Part shown: positions 3,994 to 54,327 of the stretch, piece by piece | Numbering within the stretch: the first letter of the stretch is position 1 | Layout: each line of letters starts with the position of its first letter | NCBI GenBank assembly: GCA_965217895.1 | Contig: CBDCJV010000002.1 | Coordinates: 1,024,001 to 1,088,000 of the forward strand | Reading direction: 5' to 3' | Length of the DNA stretch: 64,000 nucleotides | Source: Waterburya sp. | GTDB taxonomy: Bacteria; Cyanobacteriota; Cyanobacteriia; Cyanobacteriales; Xenococcaceae | Notes under the pieces: model-generated | The model's database searches: none | Told to the model about the DNA's origin: nothing | The model's input: only the letters and a program-made list of their open reading frames with translations | Made by a program: the position numbers and the translations under genes

Positions 3994-6665
3994 ATGAGGC
4001 TCAAAAAGCTAAATAACCAACTGCTAAATCTAGATAAGGGACTGCTTAGTCTTAATAATCGTCACTTTTTGCTCTTTGATGCAATTATTTTTTCTTTAAC
4101 TCCATTATTAGGAATAAGCCTAAGACTAGATAATTTAATGCGACTGCATGAGTATAGAAGTGGTTTAATCATTGCAACTTTCATTTTTTCTTTAATTAAG
4201 CTGATAGTCTTTACACTTGGTAGTTTTTACAAACGATATTGGAAGTATGCCAGTATCGATGAGCTAACTCAGATGACAGCTTTAACTGCATCTGCGGTCA
4301 TAATAGAGATTATTATCCTCAGTCTTTTAGAATATGTATTTGGTTTATCCAACTCTATAGCCAGGGTCAAATTTTTATGCTTAATATGGGTCAACCAGTT
4401 AAGATTGTTGACTTGGCTAAAGACTTAATTCGTCTTTCAGGATATGAAGTGGGCAAAGATATTGAAATTATCTTTACAGGATTGAGACCAGGAGAAAAAT
4501 TATTTGAAGAATTGCTGGTTGAGGGAGAAGAATATGAATCTACTAACCACGAAAAAGTGTTAGTAGTTAAAAATGCTAGTCGCATTATTCCCGAAAATCT
4601 TGAGATCAGCATTGAGGCAATGTGTAACGCAGCCAAAAACAACGATATTAATCTGATTATCTTTTTGTTGGATCGATTAGTAGTTGGCTATAACTCCAAG
4701 TATCAACGAATCAACGTCGATCTCGCTCAGGAAAACCTAGCCAAAATAATTAGTGAAGCCTGTAATCTTAATTCACTTAACCTGAGTTTACAGACAAAGT
4801 TAAACCCTCGTCTAAGTTTACCCAGTTCTGGCTCTTCAAGCCGTTTGACCGAAAAAGAGCTAGAACGAGGTCTAAAACGAGCATTAGAAAATGAAGAATT
4901 TTGTCTTTGCTACCAACCAGTTATCAATTTGCAAACTGGTGAGGTGAAAGAGTTTGAGGCTTTGTTGCGCTGGAATCATCCTCAATTAGGATTGATTCCA
5001 CCCCAAAAATTTATTGCCATAGCAGCAGAATATGGAATTTTAATGCCGATACAACACTGGATTATCGAAACGGTTTGTCAAAAGTTAAAGCAATGGCAGC
5101 AAGATAGTAGTCTAAATCCCCAAGTTGCCATTAGTATTAATCTGCCCAATCAACAGCTATTCCAAGCAAGCTTGGTTAAAAATTTACAGTACAACCTGGA
5201 AAAATATTGGGTCGATTCTAAATTGATTGCGTTGGAAATATCAGAACACTTACTAAGAGAAAGTCCCCAAATTGCGATCGCAATTTTGCCTCAGCTAAAG
5301 CATTTAGGTATTCAACTGCAAATTGATAACTTTGGTCGCGTAGCTTCTAAGTGGTCAAGCAAAATTAATTACACTGGTAAATAGAAAGTCAAAACGAGAG
5401 TGAAAAGAGTGCATTTAGAGGGAAAACTGAGTTCAGAAACAGTCAAAATATTATGGCGATTGTATCGTCAACACCGCGATTAGAGATGCTTTCTGACCGA
5501 AAGCCTCTCTCGCGGCCAAAGTAAAAACTATCAAGTAAGAGCTAGAGCGCACTGTATATTGCTGATCGACTCAAGATACGAGCTGGAAGAACTAATTGAA
5601 ATCTTTGGAGTTAGCCGAAAAACAATATACAACTGGAAAAATAACTGGTCAAAGTACAAATTAGTAGGTTTGTATAATCGGCTTGGAAGAGGAAGAAAAG
5701 AAATTTTTAGTACGCCACAAAAACAGCAGATTAAAAAGTGGGTTACACAAAATCCGAAAAACCTTAAGCAGGTAATTGAAAAAATCAGAGAAGAATGGGG
5801 AATAGTTGCTAGCAAAGACACAGTTAAAAGAATTCTAAAATGTCTGGCAATGAAATGGAAGAGAGTGAGAAAAGTAACCAATGGGCAACCAGACAAAAAG
5901 ATGTACGAAGTCAAAAAGCAAATTCTCAAAGCTTTACAAAGGTTATCACAGCAGGGAAGTATAGATTTAAGCTATTTGGACGAAACAGGATTCTGTCTCA
6001 CTCCTTATGTTCCCTACGCTTGGCAAGAAACAAAACAGCAAGTGGGAATAGATAGCAAACAAAGTAAACGACTAAATATTCTAGGTCTTTTAAATAGAGA
6101 AAACGAGTTATATTCTTACATTAGTGAAGTAGTAATTAAATTTTTGGATTTATATGTTCAACAAATCAACAAATCCACGGTAGTAGTTTTAGACAATGCC
6201 CCCATTCATCGCTCACTAGCATTTCGGAAAAAGATAGCACAATGGCGTAAGCAGAAAATGGAAATCTTTTGGTTGCCAACCTATTCTCCTCAACTGAACT
6301 TAATAGAAATTTTGTGGCGATTTATGAAATATGAATGGATCGAAGCTCAAGCTTACACAAGCTGGAAGCATTTAACTCATCACGTCGAACATATTTTGCG
6401 AGATTTCGGCGATCGCTATGTAATTAATTTTATTGACCAAGATCAATTGGCTTGGGAATTTTTTCAAGACTTAGTAGCCGATCTCGAAAACTATGGGCTA
6501 GATATTACAGTTGCGGGAATTGAAAATATACCGCAGTTAAATAAGGTCAAAAAAATTGCCTGTGACTATGGTCAAGGATATTTTTTGACACAACCTTTAA
6601 GTAGCAAAGATCTTAATAAACTTATGGAAAATGACAGTAAAGCTTTGTTTAAAAACAGCAATTAA
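3994..6665 (+). pseudogene. Disrupted CapD-like polysaccharide biosynthesis protein fused to a C-terminal EAL domain
   Basis: CapD N-terminal TM part (YKRYWKYASIDEL) is joined out of frame at ~4360-4365 to the CapD C-terminal motif GQIFMLNMGQPVKIVDLAKDLIRLSG...GLRPGEKLFEEL. The EAL domain (YQPVINL, EALLRW, IDNFG) is interrupted by IS630 at 5348 and resumes ~6431 (CDYGQGYFLTQP). Confidence 0.8.
5348..6431 (+). mobile_element. IS630-family insertion sequence, copy 1 (tip of right TIR deleted)
   Basis: Left end TAagtggtcaagcaaaattaattac; DDE motifs YLDETGF, VVLDNAPIH, LPTYSPQLNLIE; near-identical to 52176-53272 but stops after gtaattaatttt. Confidence 0.92.
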
Positions 6666-50042: not shown

Positions 50043-50417
50043 ATGACTAACAAGTTTCGTACACCCAGTTACCGCCCCATACGAAAGCTAAAGGTTATCT
50101 TATCGGGTCTTCAGGTTGCAGTAGTAACTGATTTTAGTGTTGCCTATAAAGTGATTTTATCAGTTCCAGTGTTAATTGCTTCCTTTTTTTTTCGACAATG
50201 GGTAGATGTCAGCTTAATATTACTCGCAATGGGGCTGATGCTGATTTCTGAATTGTTTAATAGTGCGATCGAAGTTTTGTGCGATTTTGTAGAGCCTCAG
50301 CAAAATGAGCAGATCCGAATCACTAAAGATATTGCCGCAGCAGCCACAGGTCTTAGTATCTTGATGTGGGCAGCAATTTTACTTATTGAAAGCATCCGTC
50401 TTTTTCAGCTACGGTAA
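50043..50417 (+). CDS. Diacylglycerol kinase family (DgkA-like) membrane protein
   Basis: SELFNSAIEVLCD...KDIAAAA. Confidence 0.8.
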   Translation: MTNKFRTPSYRPIRKLKVILSGLQVAVVTDFSVAYKVILSVPVLIASFFFRQWVDVSLILLAMGLMLISELFNSAIEVLCDFVEPQQNEQIRITKDIAAAATGLSILMWAAILLIESIRLFQLR

Positions 50418-50445
50418 ATGTCCAGTTGCTGGTTAGCTAACACGT

Positions 50446-50633
50446 CACGACAGCTAAATCTGTTAAAAAAGCTTCGATTTCCTTCCCTCCCATATCTTTG
50501 GGATGCTGTTTATTATAAAAAAAATGTAGCGTTTAATCCAATTAACGTAGCTTTTTTCAATTTTATAAGAATAATGCTTTAAACGAATGACATCGCTAAC
50601 CTATTCGAGCAGTTTTTTAGGAGGGTTTTCCAG
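50446..50633 (-). pseudogene. intI: Integron integrase N-terminal remnant (intI-A)
   Basis: Manual translation (CTG)ENPPKKLLE*VSDVIRLKHYSYKIEKSYVNWIKRYIFF, frameshift, NKQHPKDMGGKEIEAFLTDLAV. This is the IntI N-terminal signature with a lost start, a stop and a frameshift. Confidence 0.88.
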
Positions 50634-50638
50634 AGAAT

Positions 50639-50814
50639 GATATCCAGAAAAATTCTTGATATTATGACTATCTGGTGTAATATTAAGAAAGTTTCTCGAT
50701 ATCACCGACGAATATACCGAAAGTTTCTTGATATCATTCTACATAGGGTGAATATACGGAAGTTTCTATTTTTTGTCCTATATAGGGTAGATATCCAGAA
50801 AGTTTCCGTATAAT
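50639..50814. repeat. Five imperfect ~24-bp palindromes between intI and attI
   Basis: ATATnnnGAAA(g)TTTCnnnATAT-like units at 50639, 50679, 50711, 50751 and 50790. Confidence 0.8.
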
Positions 50815-50827
50815 AATATAGTTGTGC
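50800..50827 (+). other. attI-like site of integron A
   Basis: aagtttccgtataataatata-GTTGTGC; the core is the reverse complement of GCACAAC at the start of attC1. Confidence 0.75.
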
Positions 50828-51025
50828 CACTTGCATTCTGGGTTGTTCTTGTAGTCTTGAATCTATTCTTCAACCACTCAGCGTCAAGCGATTTTGAAGT
50901 TATCGATAGGAGATAACGTAAAGAAACATTAAAGCAATGTGTTTAAGTTAAAATCGCACTGATTAGACTACAAAACTAAGTAATGAAATAGCTGTTCATT
51001 CGCAGTTACGATCAAGAGTCAGCGC

Positions 51026-51394
51026 ATGAAAGTCTATGCTATTGATCACGTTCAACTCGCAATTCCTCCGAATAGCGAAGATTTAGCAAGGGTATTTTAT
51101 GGAGAAATTCTTGGACTTAGAGAAAAGCCAAAACCTGAGCATCTAGCCGAACGCGGAGGGATTTGGTTTGAGCAGGGTGACTTGAAGCTTTATTTGGGTG
51201 TCGATCACAATTTTCGTCCAGCTACGAAAGCTCATCCTGGACTGTTGGTCGAAGATTTAGATGAGCTTATCCGTCAATGTGAGGCATCTGGCTGTAGCAT
51301 TATGATGGGTGAAGGAGTTGAAAGTCACCGACAAGTTTATGTAATAGACCCATTTGGTAATCGCTTAGAGTTGCTGGAGTTTATCGGCACGTAA
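51026..51394 (+). CDS. VOC/glyoxalase family protein (cassette 1)
   Basis: IDHVQLAIP, FYGEILGL, HPGLLV, DPFGNRLEL; attC begins 5 bp after the stop. Confidence 0.9.
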   Translation: MKVYAIDHVQLAIPPNSEDLARVFYGEILGLREKPKPEHLAERGGIWFEQGDLKLYLGVDHNFRPATKAHPGLLVEDLDELIRQCEASGCSIMMGEGVESHRQVYVIDPFGNRLELLEFIGT

Positions 51395-51399
51395 TCGCA

Positions 51400-51483
51400 G
51401 CACAACACGGCGTTAGAGCAGTGAGCAGAATTTCTCGCCTACGTTTGTAATTTACCTGTTGCTGCTCAACTGTGTCGTTCTGC
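51400..51483 (+). other. attC site 1
   Basis: GCACAAC...GTTCTGC; inner arms gtt(a)gagcag and ctgctcaac with an extrahelical base. Confidence 0.82.
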
Positions 51484-51562
51484 CGTCGCAAGCAGCTTGA
51501 TAATGCGCGAAAGACAGTGAAGATTGAATACCACAGGTCAAGATGAATGAAAGGAGATTAAA

Positions 51563-51922
51563 TTGGCTATACAGGAAGCATTTACTAGTGTCGCAGTAGA
51601 TAACCTTCACTCTGCACTAGTTTGGTATGAGCGTCTCATGGGACGGCAGCCCGACATGATTCCCAACGATAATGAGGCCGTTTGGCAATTATCAGGAAAA
51701 GCATGGTTATACATAATCGGTGATGCTCAACGTGCTGGTAAGACGTTGATAACGCTTATTGTGGATGATCTTGATGGTCACGTTGCTGAGTTTAACGAAC
51801 GAGGAATTTCATTTAAGTTTGTTGAAAAAGATTCAAAGATTTATCGAAGGGTAGTCGTTACTGATCCCGAAGGCAATACGTTTCAATTCACCGAACTCAC
51901 AAGCCAAAACAATCAAGCGTAA
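51563..51922 (+). CDS. VOC/glyoxalase family protein (cassette 2)
   Basis: WYERLMGR.PD, LIVDDLD, DPEGN; aaggag RBS before TTG. Confidence 0.85.
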   Translation: MAIQEAFTSVAVDNLHSALVWYERLMGRQPDMIPNDNEAVWQLSGKAWLYIIGDAQRAGKTLITLIVDDLDGHVAEFNERGISFKFVEKDSKIYRRVVVTDPEGNTFQFTELTSQNNQA

Positions 51923-51936
51923 CTCGTCTAACAACG

Positions 51937-52027
51937 GCACAACAACCGCGCTGCACCAGAACGTTGTGATATGGTATGGTCGGTTTGCTCAAAGGTTGTC
52001 TGCGTCCGGTGAGCGCGAACGTTAGGC
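51937..52027 (+). other. attC site 2
   Basis: GCACAAC...GTTAGGC; arms gcgct(g)cacc and ggtgagcgc; acggcacaac mirrors cassette start gttctgccgt (9/10). Confidence 0.85.
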
Positions 52028-52032
52028 CGTAT

Positions 52033-53320
52033 ATGTCACGCATCCAGGATCTTTCAATTTGCACTGCACTACCCCTTAATTGCAATGCTTGAATAGCGAT
52101 CGGATGGCTAGAGCAAGGATCGACTTTGTTCCATATGAAGGGTTTCTTTATACATCTCCAACCGCAATCACTTATTAAGTGGTCAAGCAAAATTAATTAC
52201 ACTGGTAAATAAAAAGTCAAAACGAGAGTGAAAAGAGTGCATTTAGAGGGAAAACTGAGTTCAGAAACAGTCAAAATATTATGGCGATTGTATCGTCAAC
52301 ACCGCGATTAGAGATGCTTTCTGACCGAAAGCCTCTCTCGCGGCCAAAGTAAAAACTATCAAGTAAGAGCTAGAGCGCACTGTATATTGCTGATCGACTC
52401 AAGATACGAGCTGGAAGAACTAATTGAAATCTTTGGAGTTAGCCGAAAAACAATATACAACTGGAAAAATAACTGGTCAAAGTACAAATTAGTAGGTTTG
52501 TATAATCGGCTTGGAAGAGGAAGAAAAGAAATTTTTAGTACGCCACAAAAACAGCAGATTAAAAAGTGGGTTACACAAAATCCGAAAAACCTTAAGCAGG
52601 TAATTGAAAAAATCAGAGAAGAATGGGGAATAGTTGCTAGCAAAGACACAGTTAAAAGAATTCTAAAATGTCTGGCAATGAAATGGAAGAGAGTGAGAAA
52701 AGTAACCAATGGGCAACCAGACAAAAAGATGTACGAAGTCAAAAAGCAAATTCTCAAAGCTTTACAAAGGTTATCACAGCAGGGAAGTATAGATTTAAGC
52801 TATTTGGACGAAACAGGATTCTGTCTCACTCCTTATGTTCCCTACGCTTGGCAAGAAACAAAACAGCAAGTGGGAATAGATAGCAAACAAAGTAAACGAC
52901 TAAATATTCTAGGTCTTTTAAATAGAGAAAACGAGTTATATTCTTACATTAGTGAAGTAGTAATTAAATTTTTGGATTTATATGTTCAACAAATCAACAA
53001 ATCCACGGTAGTAGTTTTAGACAATGCCCCCATTCATCGCTCACTAGCATTTCGGAAAAAGATAGCACAATGGCGTAAGCAGAAAATGGAAATCTTTTGG
53101 TTGCCAACCTATTCTCCTCAACTGAACTTAATAGAAATTTTGTGGCGATTTATGAAATATGAATGGATCGAAGCTCAAGCTTACACAAGCTGGAAGCATT
53201 TAACTCATCACGTCGAACATATTTTGCGAGATTTCGGCGATCGCTATGTAATTAATTTTGCATAGGTACTTATATATGCCGCACATTGGTACAAGCCTCC
53301 AGAAATCTTTATCCGCATCA
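52033..53320 (+). pseudogene. Decayed cassette-3 gene interrupted by IS630
   Basis: ATG 12 bp after the GTTAGGC start: MSRIQDLSICTALPLNCNA*IAIGWLEQG, then FVPYEGFLYTSPTAITY, the IS, then AAHWYKPPEIFI; no attC remains. Confidence 0.55.
52176..53272 (+). mobile_element. IS630-family insertion sequence, copy 2 (both ends intact)
   Basis: TIRs taagtggtcaagcaaaattaattac and gtaattaattttgcataggtactta with TA at both ends. Transposase runs GTG 52228 to 53265 with an in-frame TAG at 52309. Confidence 0.93.
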
Positions 53321-53343
53321 GCCCAAGAGCAAATTTCTGCATT

Positions 53344-53386
53344 GCTATCCACATTAAGCGAGACAATAGAGCTTAATGTGGATAGC
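53344..53386. repeat. Perfect 16-bp inverted repeat overlapping a HIP1 site
   Basis: gctatccacattaagc-11 nt-gcttaatgtggatagc. Confidence 0.8.
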
Positions 53387-53438
53387 GATCGCTTTGCTGC
53401 CAATCCCTGATTACAAAGTTTCGGTATTTCTGCTTCAT
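53385..53438 (-). pseudogene. N-terminal fragment of a probable GNAT acetyltransferase
   Basis: MKQKYRNFVIRDWQQSDR, ending at HIP1; resembles the cyanobacterial GNAT start (F.IRDWQ.SDR). Confidence 0.45.
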
Positions 53439-53478
53439 TATTACGATCTTTTTATTCAATCCTTCTAGTTAAAAATTT

Positions 53479-53579
53479 TCAAGGATCGAGAGGACTTCTC
53501 ACGCCTTTACCCCCGCGATTTAAATCATGGTTGTTTTCACATCTTTATGCCCTAATAACTCTTGTACTTGTTCTATAAG
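53479..53579 (-). pseudogene. intI: Collapsed integron integrase remnant (intI-B)
   Basis: LIEQVQELLGHKDVKTTMI, frameshift, LNRGGKGVRSPLDP*. This is the IntI C-terminus without the YTHV segment that holds the catalytic Tyr. Confidence 0.85.
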
Positions 53580-53602
53580 TTCTGTATGATAAATAGTTAT
53601 GC
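53577..53602 (+). other. attI-like site of integron B
   Basis: aagttctgtatgataaata-GTTATGC resembles attI-A; gttatgcagc is the exact reverse complement of gctgcataac at attC3. Confidence 0.72.
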
Positions 53603-53701
53603 AGCTTAGATTGTTGGTTAGGACAGCGATCTGAAGTTGTCATTGGGGTAATTAATCTTTAAAGTGGTGTAGAGTTTAAGCAACTATTTAGAGGAGGCTC
53701 A

Positions 53702-54163
53702 ATGATTCGAGTGATTCTAGCCCTGCTCCTGAACTCTGCTCTTCTTACAGGCAACGAATTTGCTGTAGCTGCGTTTATACATCCGTCCTTATCTCGTCAA
53801 GATCATCGTTCAAATCTTTCTGCGATACAGCGTTTTGCACATCTTTATGGCGGAGTAATGCCGATATGGATGGCGGTAACTACAGCACTACACATTTTTG
53901 TATGCGTGATGGCATGGTTCTACTCTCCATCCGCGTTTCCTTGGCTATGTGCTGCTGCCCTAATTTGGGTTATTGTGATTCCCTTCAGCCTCATCTTTCT
54001 AGTTCCTTTGAATAATCAAGTTAAGGAATGGGATCTCAACAATTTACCTTCAAATTGGGAGAGTATTAGGATCAGATGGGACTTCTATAACTGGCTCAGA
54101 GTCATACTTTTAATGTCTGCATTTGTTTTATTATCAGTGGGATTGAAAAACTATTCTTCTTAA
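53702..54163 (+). CDS. DUF1772/anthrone oxygenase-like membrane protein (cassette of integron B)
   Basis: 4 TM, VPLNNQVKEW....P.NW...R.RW..YNWLR; gaggagg RBS. Confidence 0.8.
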   Translation: MIRVILALLLNSALLTGNEFAVAAFIHPSLSRQDHRSNLSAIQRFAHLYGGVMPIWMAVTTALHIFVCVMAWFYSPSAFPWLCAAALIWVIVIPFSLIFLVPLNNQVKEWDLNNLPSNWESIRIRWDFYNWLRVILLMSAFVLLSVGLKNYSS

Positions 54164-54239
54164 GCTACTAAATCTAAAGCTCTAAAATCGAGTTTTAGTA
54201 AGCGTGGGAGGTAGTCTGTTTTGTAAGTACGAGGTCGCT

Positions 54240-54327
54240 GCATAACAACGCCCATGCACACCAACCGTCGAGAGGTGATCGGTATGATGCAAAGATAGTC
54301 TGCCGCAGGTGAAGCGGAACGTTAAAA
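54240..54327 (+). other. attC site 3
   Basis: GCATAAC aac...gaac GTTAAAA with imperfect internal arms; same layout as attC2. Confidence 0.75.

Follow-up and report, generated by a model that had tools for sequence, protein, structure and literature searches.

Integrons were called little studied in cyanobacteria by the earlier note on this DNA; this is fair, but they have been catalogued, and, going by the available text of the surveys, cyanobacterial integrons, intI pseudogenes, CALINs and a Cyanobacteria attC model are already in print (PMC4889954, PMC2426708, PMC8352920). In these surveys pseudogenes make up about one third of intI genes, and Cyanobacteria are among the hosts (PMC4889954, PMC2426708). 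The closest described elements are CALINs with an adjacent intI pseudogene and pseudo-integrons, which like the present locus contain two attC sites or more but no working intI; the present locus differs from those described in the available parts of the surveys in that it keeps two attI sites and consists of two nested platforms (PMC4889954, PMC2426708). Note that Cury 2016, in the portion available, required 50% profile coverage and placed 95% of CALINs "not close to an intI pseudogene" (PMC4889954); because the intI stumps reported below are far below 50% coverage, loci of this kind would fall among that 95%.

Three other systems share some of these traits. In SALIN/attG insertion (Loot et al., 10.1101/2022.09.11.507474), as far as the available text goes, the integrase acts at genomic secondary sites, scattering cassettes, and can rearrange flanks, as seems to have occurred here; in our case pieces of attI and intI belong to the unit that is scattered, and five of the eight attC matches of the source genome lie behind an attI (150 candidates scored). 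Xanthomonas integrons with inactivated intI (10.1101/2025.06.18.660453) likewise show repeated intI decay within a genus and CALINs at conserved loci, with mobilisation in trans mentioned in the available text; there, one ancestral ilvD locus is involved and the arrays freeze once intI is inactivated, whereas here a genome has several platforms, and the first cassettes at an orphan attI common to several genomes differ. Finally, delta-attI-type cassettes of mobile integrons also carry attI pieces within arrays, where IntI1 can recombine them, but those are clinical class 1 and 2 arrays and their abstract mentions neither intI fragments nor chromosomal relocation (PMC12901181).

We studied a window of 64 kb (G000:C2:1024001-1088000; unprefixed coordinates are those of the window) from a 5.29-Mb genome, G000, which is 99.9% complete. 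The locus consists of two decayed integron platforms in tandem, A and B, each with an attI, a destroyed intI and captured cassettes. The earlier note had described the segment 50446..52027 as canonical integron architecture: its coordinates for the intI stump, the attI, the two VOC ORFs, attC1 and attC2 all hold, but the element is decayed and not a working canonical integron, and it extends to 54327. Beyond attC2 we found a broken cassette 3 with an IS630 element, then the 3' remnant of an intI, another attI, and a DUF1772 cassette with a third attC. The locus is a CALIN with two attI sites and not a complete integron: three attC sites are clustered within 2.9 kb with no detectable intI, as judged with our own covariance model and the TIGR02249 cut-off, and no intact intI adjoins either attI, both genes being stumps. 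It is a known kind of element that resembles a frozen integron array and, taken as a single locus, an ordinary decayed integron. Contigs of the probable source-sample run span its junctions (50454, 53385, 53596 and 54321) without differences, which is not independent support. The features are as follows.

50435..50454, plus strand: likely the left half (R'' and the beginning of L'') of a truncated, older attC that follows dgkA; 3/20 mismatches to the cyanobacterial attC start.
50449..50633, minus strand: intI-A pseudogene, codons 1 to ~63 (TIGR02249 positions 1-35; PF13495; DNA identity to G027).
50634..50814, no strand: five 25-bp dyads with spacings of 40, 32, 40 and 39 bp; four above threshold, the fourth with a 1-bp deletion.
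50803..50827, plus strand: simple site attI-A, with its L arm at 50803-50813, a central region of 8 bp and the crossover at 50821/50822 (G/TT).
50822..51477, plus strand: cassette 1, 656 bp, VOC/glyoxalase-like ORF 51026-51394 (PF00903).
51400..51483, plus strand: attC1, 84 bp; 34.1 bits, E 6.7e-6; atypical extrahelical T and A (bottom strand).
51478..52021, plus strand: cassette 2, 544 bp, VOC/glyoxalase-like ORF 51563-51922 (PF00903).
51937..52027, plus strand: attC2, 91 bp; 56.5 bits, E 2.9e-11.
52022..53384, plus strand: cassette 3 remnant, starting at the attC2 crossover; broken ORF split by IS630, no attC left.
52176..53272, plus strand: IS630-family element, transposase 52387-53265 (DDE_3 and HTH domains).
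53385..53439, minus strand: 5' end (first 18 codons) of a GNAT-type gene, presumably a GNAT acetyltransferase, interrupted at a HIP1 octamer; the complete gene lies from C2:1623175 onward.
53479..53581, minus strand: remnant of intI-B, frameshifted, in which a few codons of the N-terminus are joined to the last ~30 (TIGR02249 positions 279-308).
53579..53602, plus strand: attI-B, minimal, repeat array deleted; crossover 53596/53597; same site and same first cassette in G020 (92% identity).
53597..54321, plus strand: cassette 4, 725 bp, DUF1772/anthrone-oxygenase-like ORF 53702-54163 (PF08592; cluster names DUF1772).
54240..54327, plus strand: attC3, 88 bp; 52.4 bits, E 2.8e-10; crossover 54321/54322.

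The intI-A gene has lost its start codon (GTG to CTG), carries a TAG at codon 11 and a frameshift from one missing base near 50519, and is deleted after codon ~63. Together with its upstream spacer it showed 81% DNA identity to the intact intI region of G027, whose product scored 472 bits against a TIGR02249 cut-off of 265; the nearest intact relatives scored 472 and 488 bits. Read through the breaks, with X at each, intI-A matched 71 of 72 IntI-type proteins (best E 1.8e-30) and none of the 7536 other open frames of its own genome, tyrosine recombinases included. The minus-strand IntI N-terminal pseudogene described earlier is thus real, and the concern that it might be nearer to non-integron tyrosine recombinases was settled in favour of IntI. 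In intI-B the deletion joins matching V-Q codons, and both stumps have lost the part where the IntI-specific additional domain near patch III would lie. An intact intI elsewhere in the genome, which the earlier note proposed to look for, was absent from the profile search of the 99.9% complete sequence: there were seven TIGR02249 matches, two of them inside the window, and none exceeded the cut-off.

Five other platforms aligned with the window through the G at 50821 and diverged beyond it. The same pattern, with homology ending and variable cassettes starting at G/TT, was seen when attI-A was compared with run X3 and attI-B with G020, so that the divergent attI-like site suggested at 50821 was borne out by the platform homology that stops at the crossover. 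In 30 called attI sites the central region measured 7 bp (24 sites) or 8 bp (6 sites). The space from the intI-A start to attI-A is filled by the dyad array, and the right arm of the last dyad is the L arm of attI-A. We collected 76 spacers, from the window and from 75 loci at which the intI match starts within ten residues and has 150 bases upstream; kin among them not being independent, at least two dyads were present in 45 and none in 22, and 67 of 100 dyad intervals were 39-41 bp as compared with at most 0.1 in shuffles. In G000 all nine matches to the dyad matrix at 18 bits or more were located at four attI loci (a shuffle gave 4), as were all six at 21 bits or more (shuffle, 0). With no match of at least 18 bits outside the attI loci and 15-bit matches near chance (18 vs 14), a host regulon was rejected; the dyads could still be sites of a regulator with few targets. 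The 40-bp dyads may be extra IntI binding arms covering the intI promoter, possibly autorepressing intI. Against the IntI-arm reading, dyad arms were nearer to their own attI arm than to those of others in only 19 of 30 loci, and this covariation was rejected as too weak an argument. Four spacers upstream of intI (L063, L064, L112 and L117) form a second subtype that escaped the dyad matrix, in which the conserved unit is a palindrome between facing arms and not a back-to-back dyad.

The class 1 attI1 site, according to the available text of PMC8946536 and PMC3146285, is likewise a simple site with upstream core-like repeats, DR1 and DR2, thought to hold extra IntI. In contrast to these two direct repeats (PMC8946536, PMC3146285), the window has about ten putative arms in back-to-back inverted pairs with a 40-bp period that reach the intI start. 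Cyanobacterial intI genes are reported to have no E. coli LexA box, and an arm array over the intI promoter would suggest a restraint of integrases outside E. coli-type LexA control, a gap named in the available part of the same paper (PMC3108266). A promoter scan gave 11 sites against 10.5 expected and therefore we claim neither Pc nor PintI from it. Our literature search, which covered few subscription journals, found nothing on cyanobacterial attI structure or arrays, orphan attI turnover or platform relocation; its limited reach could affect how new the dyads, and the extrahelical C described below, are.

To avoid circularity, attC candidates for modelling were picked by a pairing rule in the arrays of other integrons. 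The rule gave 50 candidates in 210 kb, whereas the reverse strand yielded 6 and a shuffle 5, and 38 of the 50 (84-89 bp, score of at least 10.5, three non-cyanobacterial loci excluded) served to build a covariance model from other cyanobacteria. Applied to the 64-kb window with filters off, the model gave exactly three matches up to E = 1, which are the attC sites listed above; all three are full-length and have AAC/GTT boundaries, paired L boxes and bottom-strand extrahelical bases. The two sites first noticed, attC1 and attC2, are therefore upheld, attC3 is added to them, and the possibility that the sites would fail an attC covariance model was not realized with this independent cyanobacterial one. 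In the training set 8 of 14 structure pairs showed changes on both sides, although a set chosen for pairing leans toward structure. Folding of the sites, also proposed earlier, did not help: the energies of the three attC could not be told from those of shuffles (z -0.12, 0.25 and -0.63). Folding energy was dropped as proof for this reason, and the support for the attC sites rests on the model and the comparisons. The R-box pairing probabilities of the window sites were 0.52, 0.67 and 0.03 (the last for attC3), versus a median of 0.9 in the 38 others. The cyanobacterial attC class of Ghaly 2021 (PMC8352920), as described in its available text, has the same clade-typical sequence and fold as the window sites of 84-91 bp; these were scored with our separate model as a stand-in for attC-taxa, and that text carries no mention of C as first extrahelical base.

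The likely attC half-site at 50435..50454 was also found in G023, and its last bases are the 6 bp of microhomology to the break in intI-A. A 20-base resemblance to the attC start of this degree occurs at 12 places of the chromosome, counting both strands, four of which are model-confirmed attC sites. No attC was found behind dgkA in 10 homologous loci; consequently dgkA was rejected as a cassette and only the half-site is recorded after it. The dgkA-like gene itself (window 50043-50417) was present in 10 of 38 other genomes of the genus at E 1e-20, in varying contexts, and does not follow argG in G017, G019, G020 and G028.

By established integron biology, each cassette will have entered by recombination of attI with attC, the newest standing first. 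Cassettes 1, 2 and 4 begin at G/TT joints matching their own attC ends. It had been proposed that the first bases of every cassette are complementary to the core at its own end; this is so at 7/7 positions in cassette 1, and likewise in cassette 4 (attC3 end), but only at 6/7 in cassette 2 (GTTCTGC vs GCACAAC). Both predicted VOC genes were confirmed, and the third cassette start was found at 52022, as that of a broken cassette. AttC-like ends were present behind two of six homologues of cassette 1 in other families, and cassette 2 had a 97% homologue with attC in another context and other flanks in runs X3 and X6. Within the genus, cassettes 1 and 2 were not found in the 38 other genomes save for three short matches, two of which were to attC2. 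The ORF of cassette 3 has an in-frame stop and its frame resumes across IS630, and it is probably a pseudogene; its four pieces had no Pfam match and no informative tblastn match in the fetched loci. The IS630 element has four other near-full copies in the genome (99.5-99.9% identity), and another copy in the window (5348-6431, 99.9%) is missing its final right-end bases. At the junction between cassette 3 and platform B, a near-perfect 19-bp inverted repeat with an 11-bp loop (53341-53389) ends in the HIP1 site; no other copy of it was found in the genome.

Comparison with relatives gives some insight into the history of the site. In G023, whose flanks are ~90% identical, position 50454 is joined almost directly to 54322 and the block 50455-54321 is absent. 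On the right the missing block stops at the attC3 crossover; on the left it is bounded by 6 bp that the target and intI-A have in common, within the 20 bases that resemble an attC start. In G028, a more distant genome, argG adjoins a gene of 156 aa with nothing between. Integron remnants lie upstream of the GNAT gene in both G000 and G020, and in G020 the GNAT gene, an intI stump, the repeat array, attI and the DUF1772 cassette stand together, 92% identical to 53580-54324. Because all these pieces, with the same cassette, are found together in G020, platform B appears to come from the GNAT locus; its GNAT/intI-3' part is only 78-80% identical to the copies in G020 and in its own genome.

We consider it probable that the two tandem decayed platforms were brought by IntI and can no longer move cassettes unless an integrase is supplied from elsewhere. 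Platform B, and probably A, would have arrived as part of a circle, excised by cuts at an attC downstream and at a secondary site past the intI 3' end; the resident array would have taken up this circle at its last attC. Both intI genes would then have lost most of their length, and the upstream attC sites one half, through short deletions at microhomologies, and the IS630 insertion would be the last event. Recombination of attC with genomic GWT sites by IntI, and excision at nearby sites, have been demonstrated, according to the available text (10.1101/2022.09.11.507474). Some observations count against this course: neither left junction is a clean G/TT, so that the start of the circle is not visible; G023 may have lost the block, its joint having 11 bases in common with the cassette-4 leader and C, not G, before the TT; the GNAT/intI-3' part of B has the low identity of 78-80% given above; the duplicated clpB ends in related arrays do not start at GTT, and no clean G/TT start was found among them; and the right end at attC3 could also be explained if B came by another route and was trimmed later by attC x attC excision.

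Since the left joints are destroyed, the platforms might have been moved or duplicated without IntI, by homologous, HIP1- or microhomology-mediated events or by DNA uptake from a relative, IntI having only inserted cassettes and trimmed the right end. The left end of platform B is in fact a HIP1 octamer, one of 5798 on the chromosome, and that of platform A is a 6-bp microhomology; the tandem copies of flank and attI seen at the clpB locus and the GNAT locus do not begin with GTT; and A is nearer to G027 (89%) than to the other long spacers of its genome (82-84%). We nonetheless regard this course as unlikely, given that the right end of the block coincides with an attC crossover and its left end lies within an apparent older attC, and that platform B requires a distant move and not a local duplication. 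It is highly improbable that a single ancestral integron was scrambled in place, the stumps being halves of one intI and G023 having lost the block. In its favour, the array has just one 5' stump on one side and one 3' stump on the other, and there are the 11 bases common to the G023 joint and the cassette-4 leader; but B has its own N-terminal codons and its own attI of the G020/G015 type, the spacer of A is of the G027 type, and argG is not directly followed by an integron in G028 or in three closer relatives. The reading of the earlier note, a single canonical integron whose GTTGTGC and GTTCTGC cores define a lineage-specific attC type, can hardly be correct. In its favour, the R'' GCACAAC of both VOC cassettes occurs in none of the 38 training sites; against it, attC3 and other G000 sites have TAAC ends, 28 of 38 cyanobacterial ends break GTTRRRY, and the core follows the cassette across families.

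The strict consensus GTTRRRY fits only 10 of the 38 cyanobacterial right ends, and RYYYAAC fits 13 of the 38 left ends; position 5 of the core is T in 13 sites, and position 4 is G in 3 and C in none. The conservation of attC has been described as generally limited to AAC and GTT, in the available part of PMC2727003. GTTCTGC looks like a probable point substitution in this copy of cassette 2, since the 97%-identical copy elsewhere starts with GTTGTGT and likewise ends with GCACAAC. Cores of the GCACAAC type accompany both VOC cassettes into other families, and because they recur with homologous cassettes there they appear to be traits of the cassettes and not marks of a lineage. The extrahelical base noted earlier in the attC arms is present, but there are two per site: C and T in attC2 and attC3, and T and A in attC1, where the family has C and T. 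Among the 38 cyanobacterial sites the first extrahelical base is C in 37 and the second T in 36, so that C in first position is apparently a better mark of the clade than the core. It departs from the rule, given in the available text of PMC2727003, that this base is almost exclusively G, with C tolerated by IntI1 and T harmful, lowering excision 68-fold.

Spacer-attI DNA matched 31 of 39 genomes of the genus, up to eight times each, and a full-length uninterrupted intI was present in 3 of 36; a renewed search of five near-complete relatives found no full-length intI. Besides the window, G000 has three further attI loci. One orphan attI lies behind a gene that we take to be clpB-like and is common to G000, G019, G020 and G023, with the same intI deletion, and absent from G017; its five copies carry four different first cassettes. 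With precise G/TT entry of these cassettes apparently following the shared loss of intI, the arrangement suggests use of the site by an integrase acting in trans. A rival explanation is that recombination placed the intI deletion before different arrays. We tentatively propose, at somewhat less than even confidence, that the integrons of the genus form a dispersed system in which IntI moves its own platform in attC-ended circles and intI is soon lost, leaving orphan attI sites with putative phased arms and a -10 box that are reloaded in trans by a passing integrase. If so, many cyanobacterial CALINs and SALINs would be attI-anchored platforms unseen by current tools and not random insertions. 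The stronger claim that most attC sites are attI-anchored was abandoned: 5/8 attC matches were behind an attI in G000, but only 5/19 had a dyad within 1.5 kb in five relatives (150 candidates per genome scored).

The main interest of these results is that orphan docking sites are common in the genus and likely still receive genes via a recombinase encoded elsewhere. The clpB orphan attI with its four first cassettes offers a natural test of activity in trans, and a readable cyanobacterial attI motif permits counting the CALINs and SALINs that keep a docking site. Comparisons of this kind make testable both the origin of integrase-less cassette clusters and whether they are still turning over.

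Other traces of integrons were recorded in G000, where the attC model gave eight matches (150 of 828 candidates scored). Three are single attC sites: one at G000:C2:283746 with no platform trace, one at G000:C2:3262053 with a worn L-box-like motif upstream, and one at G000:C2:3795621, downstream of an intI 5' fragment, at a locus where G023 keeps an attI. At G000:C2:1379926 (minus strand) 20 bases have one mismatch to the attC start, outside the eight matches. The clpB locus of G000 (L157, G000:C2:3673234-3675150) comprises the clpB-like 3' end, the orphan attI, a cassette, a duplicated clpB piece, a two-gene toxin-antitoxin-like cassette and a partial second attI; it is orthologous in G019, G020 and G023, with other first cassettes there. 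In the GNAT-locus platform (L155, G000:C2:1621440-1619960) the last 13 intI codons are fused to the repeat array, the attI is damaged, and a methyltransferase-like cassette with attC precedes a second cassette, whose attC is presumably aadA7-like; an IS605/tnpB-like element lies between the platform and the GNAT gene. The fourth attI (L156, G000:C2:1692709-1691550) has three dyads and no intI; behind it stand a cassette of two genes and an attC that has degenerated. In two relatives, the upstream flank together with the platform was also found in tandem copies inside cassette arrays, at G023:C1 ~2646900-2648060 (L153) and G020:C1 ~1991400-1993140 (L207).
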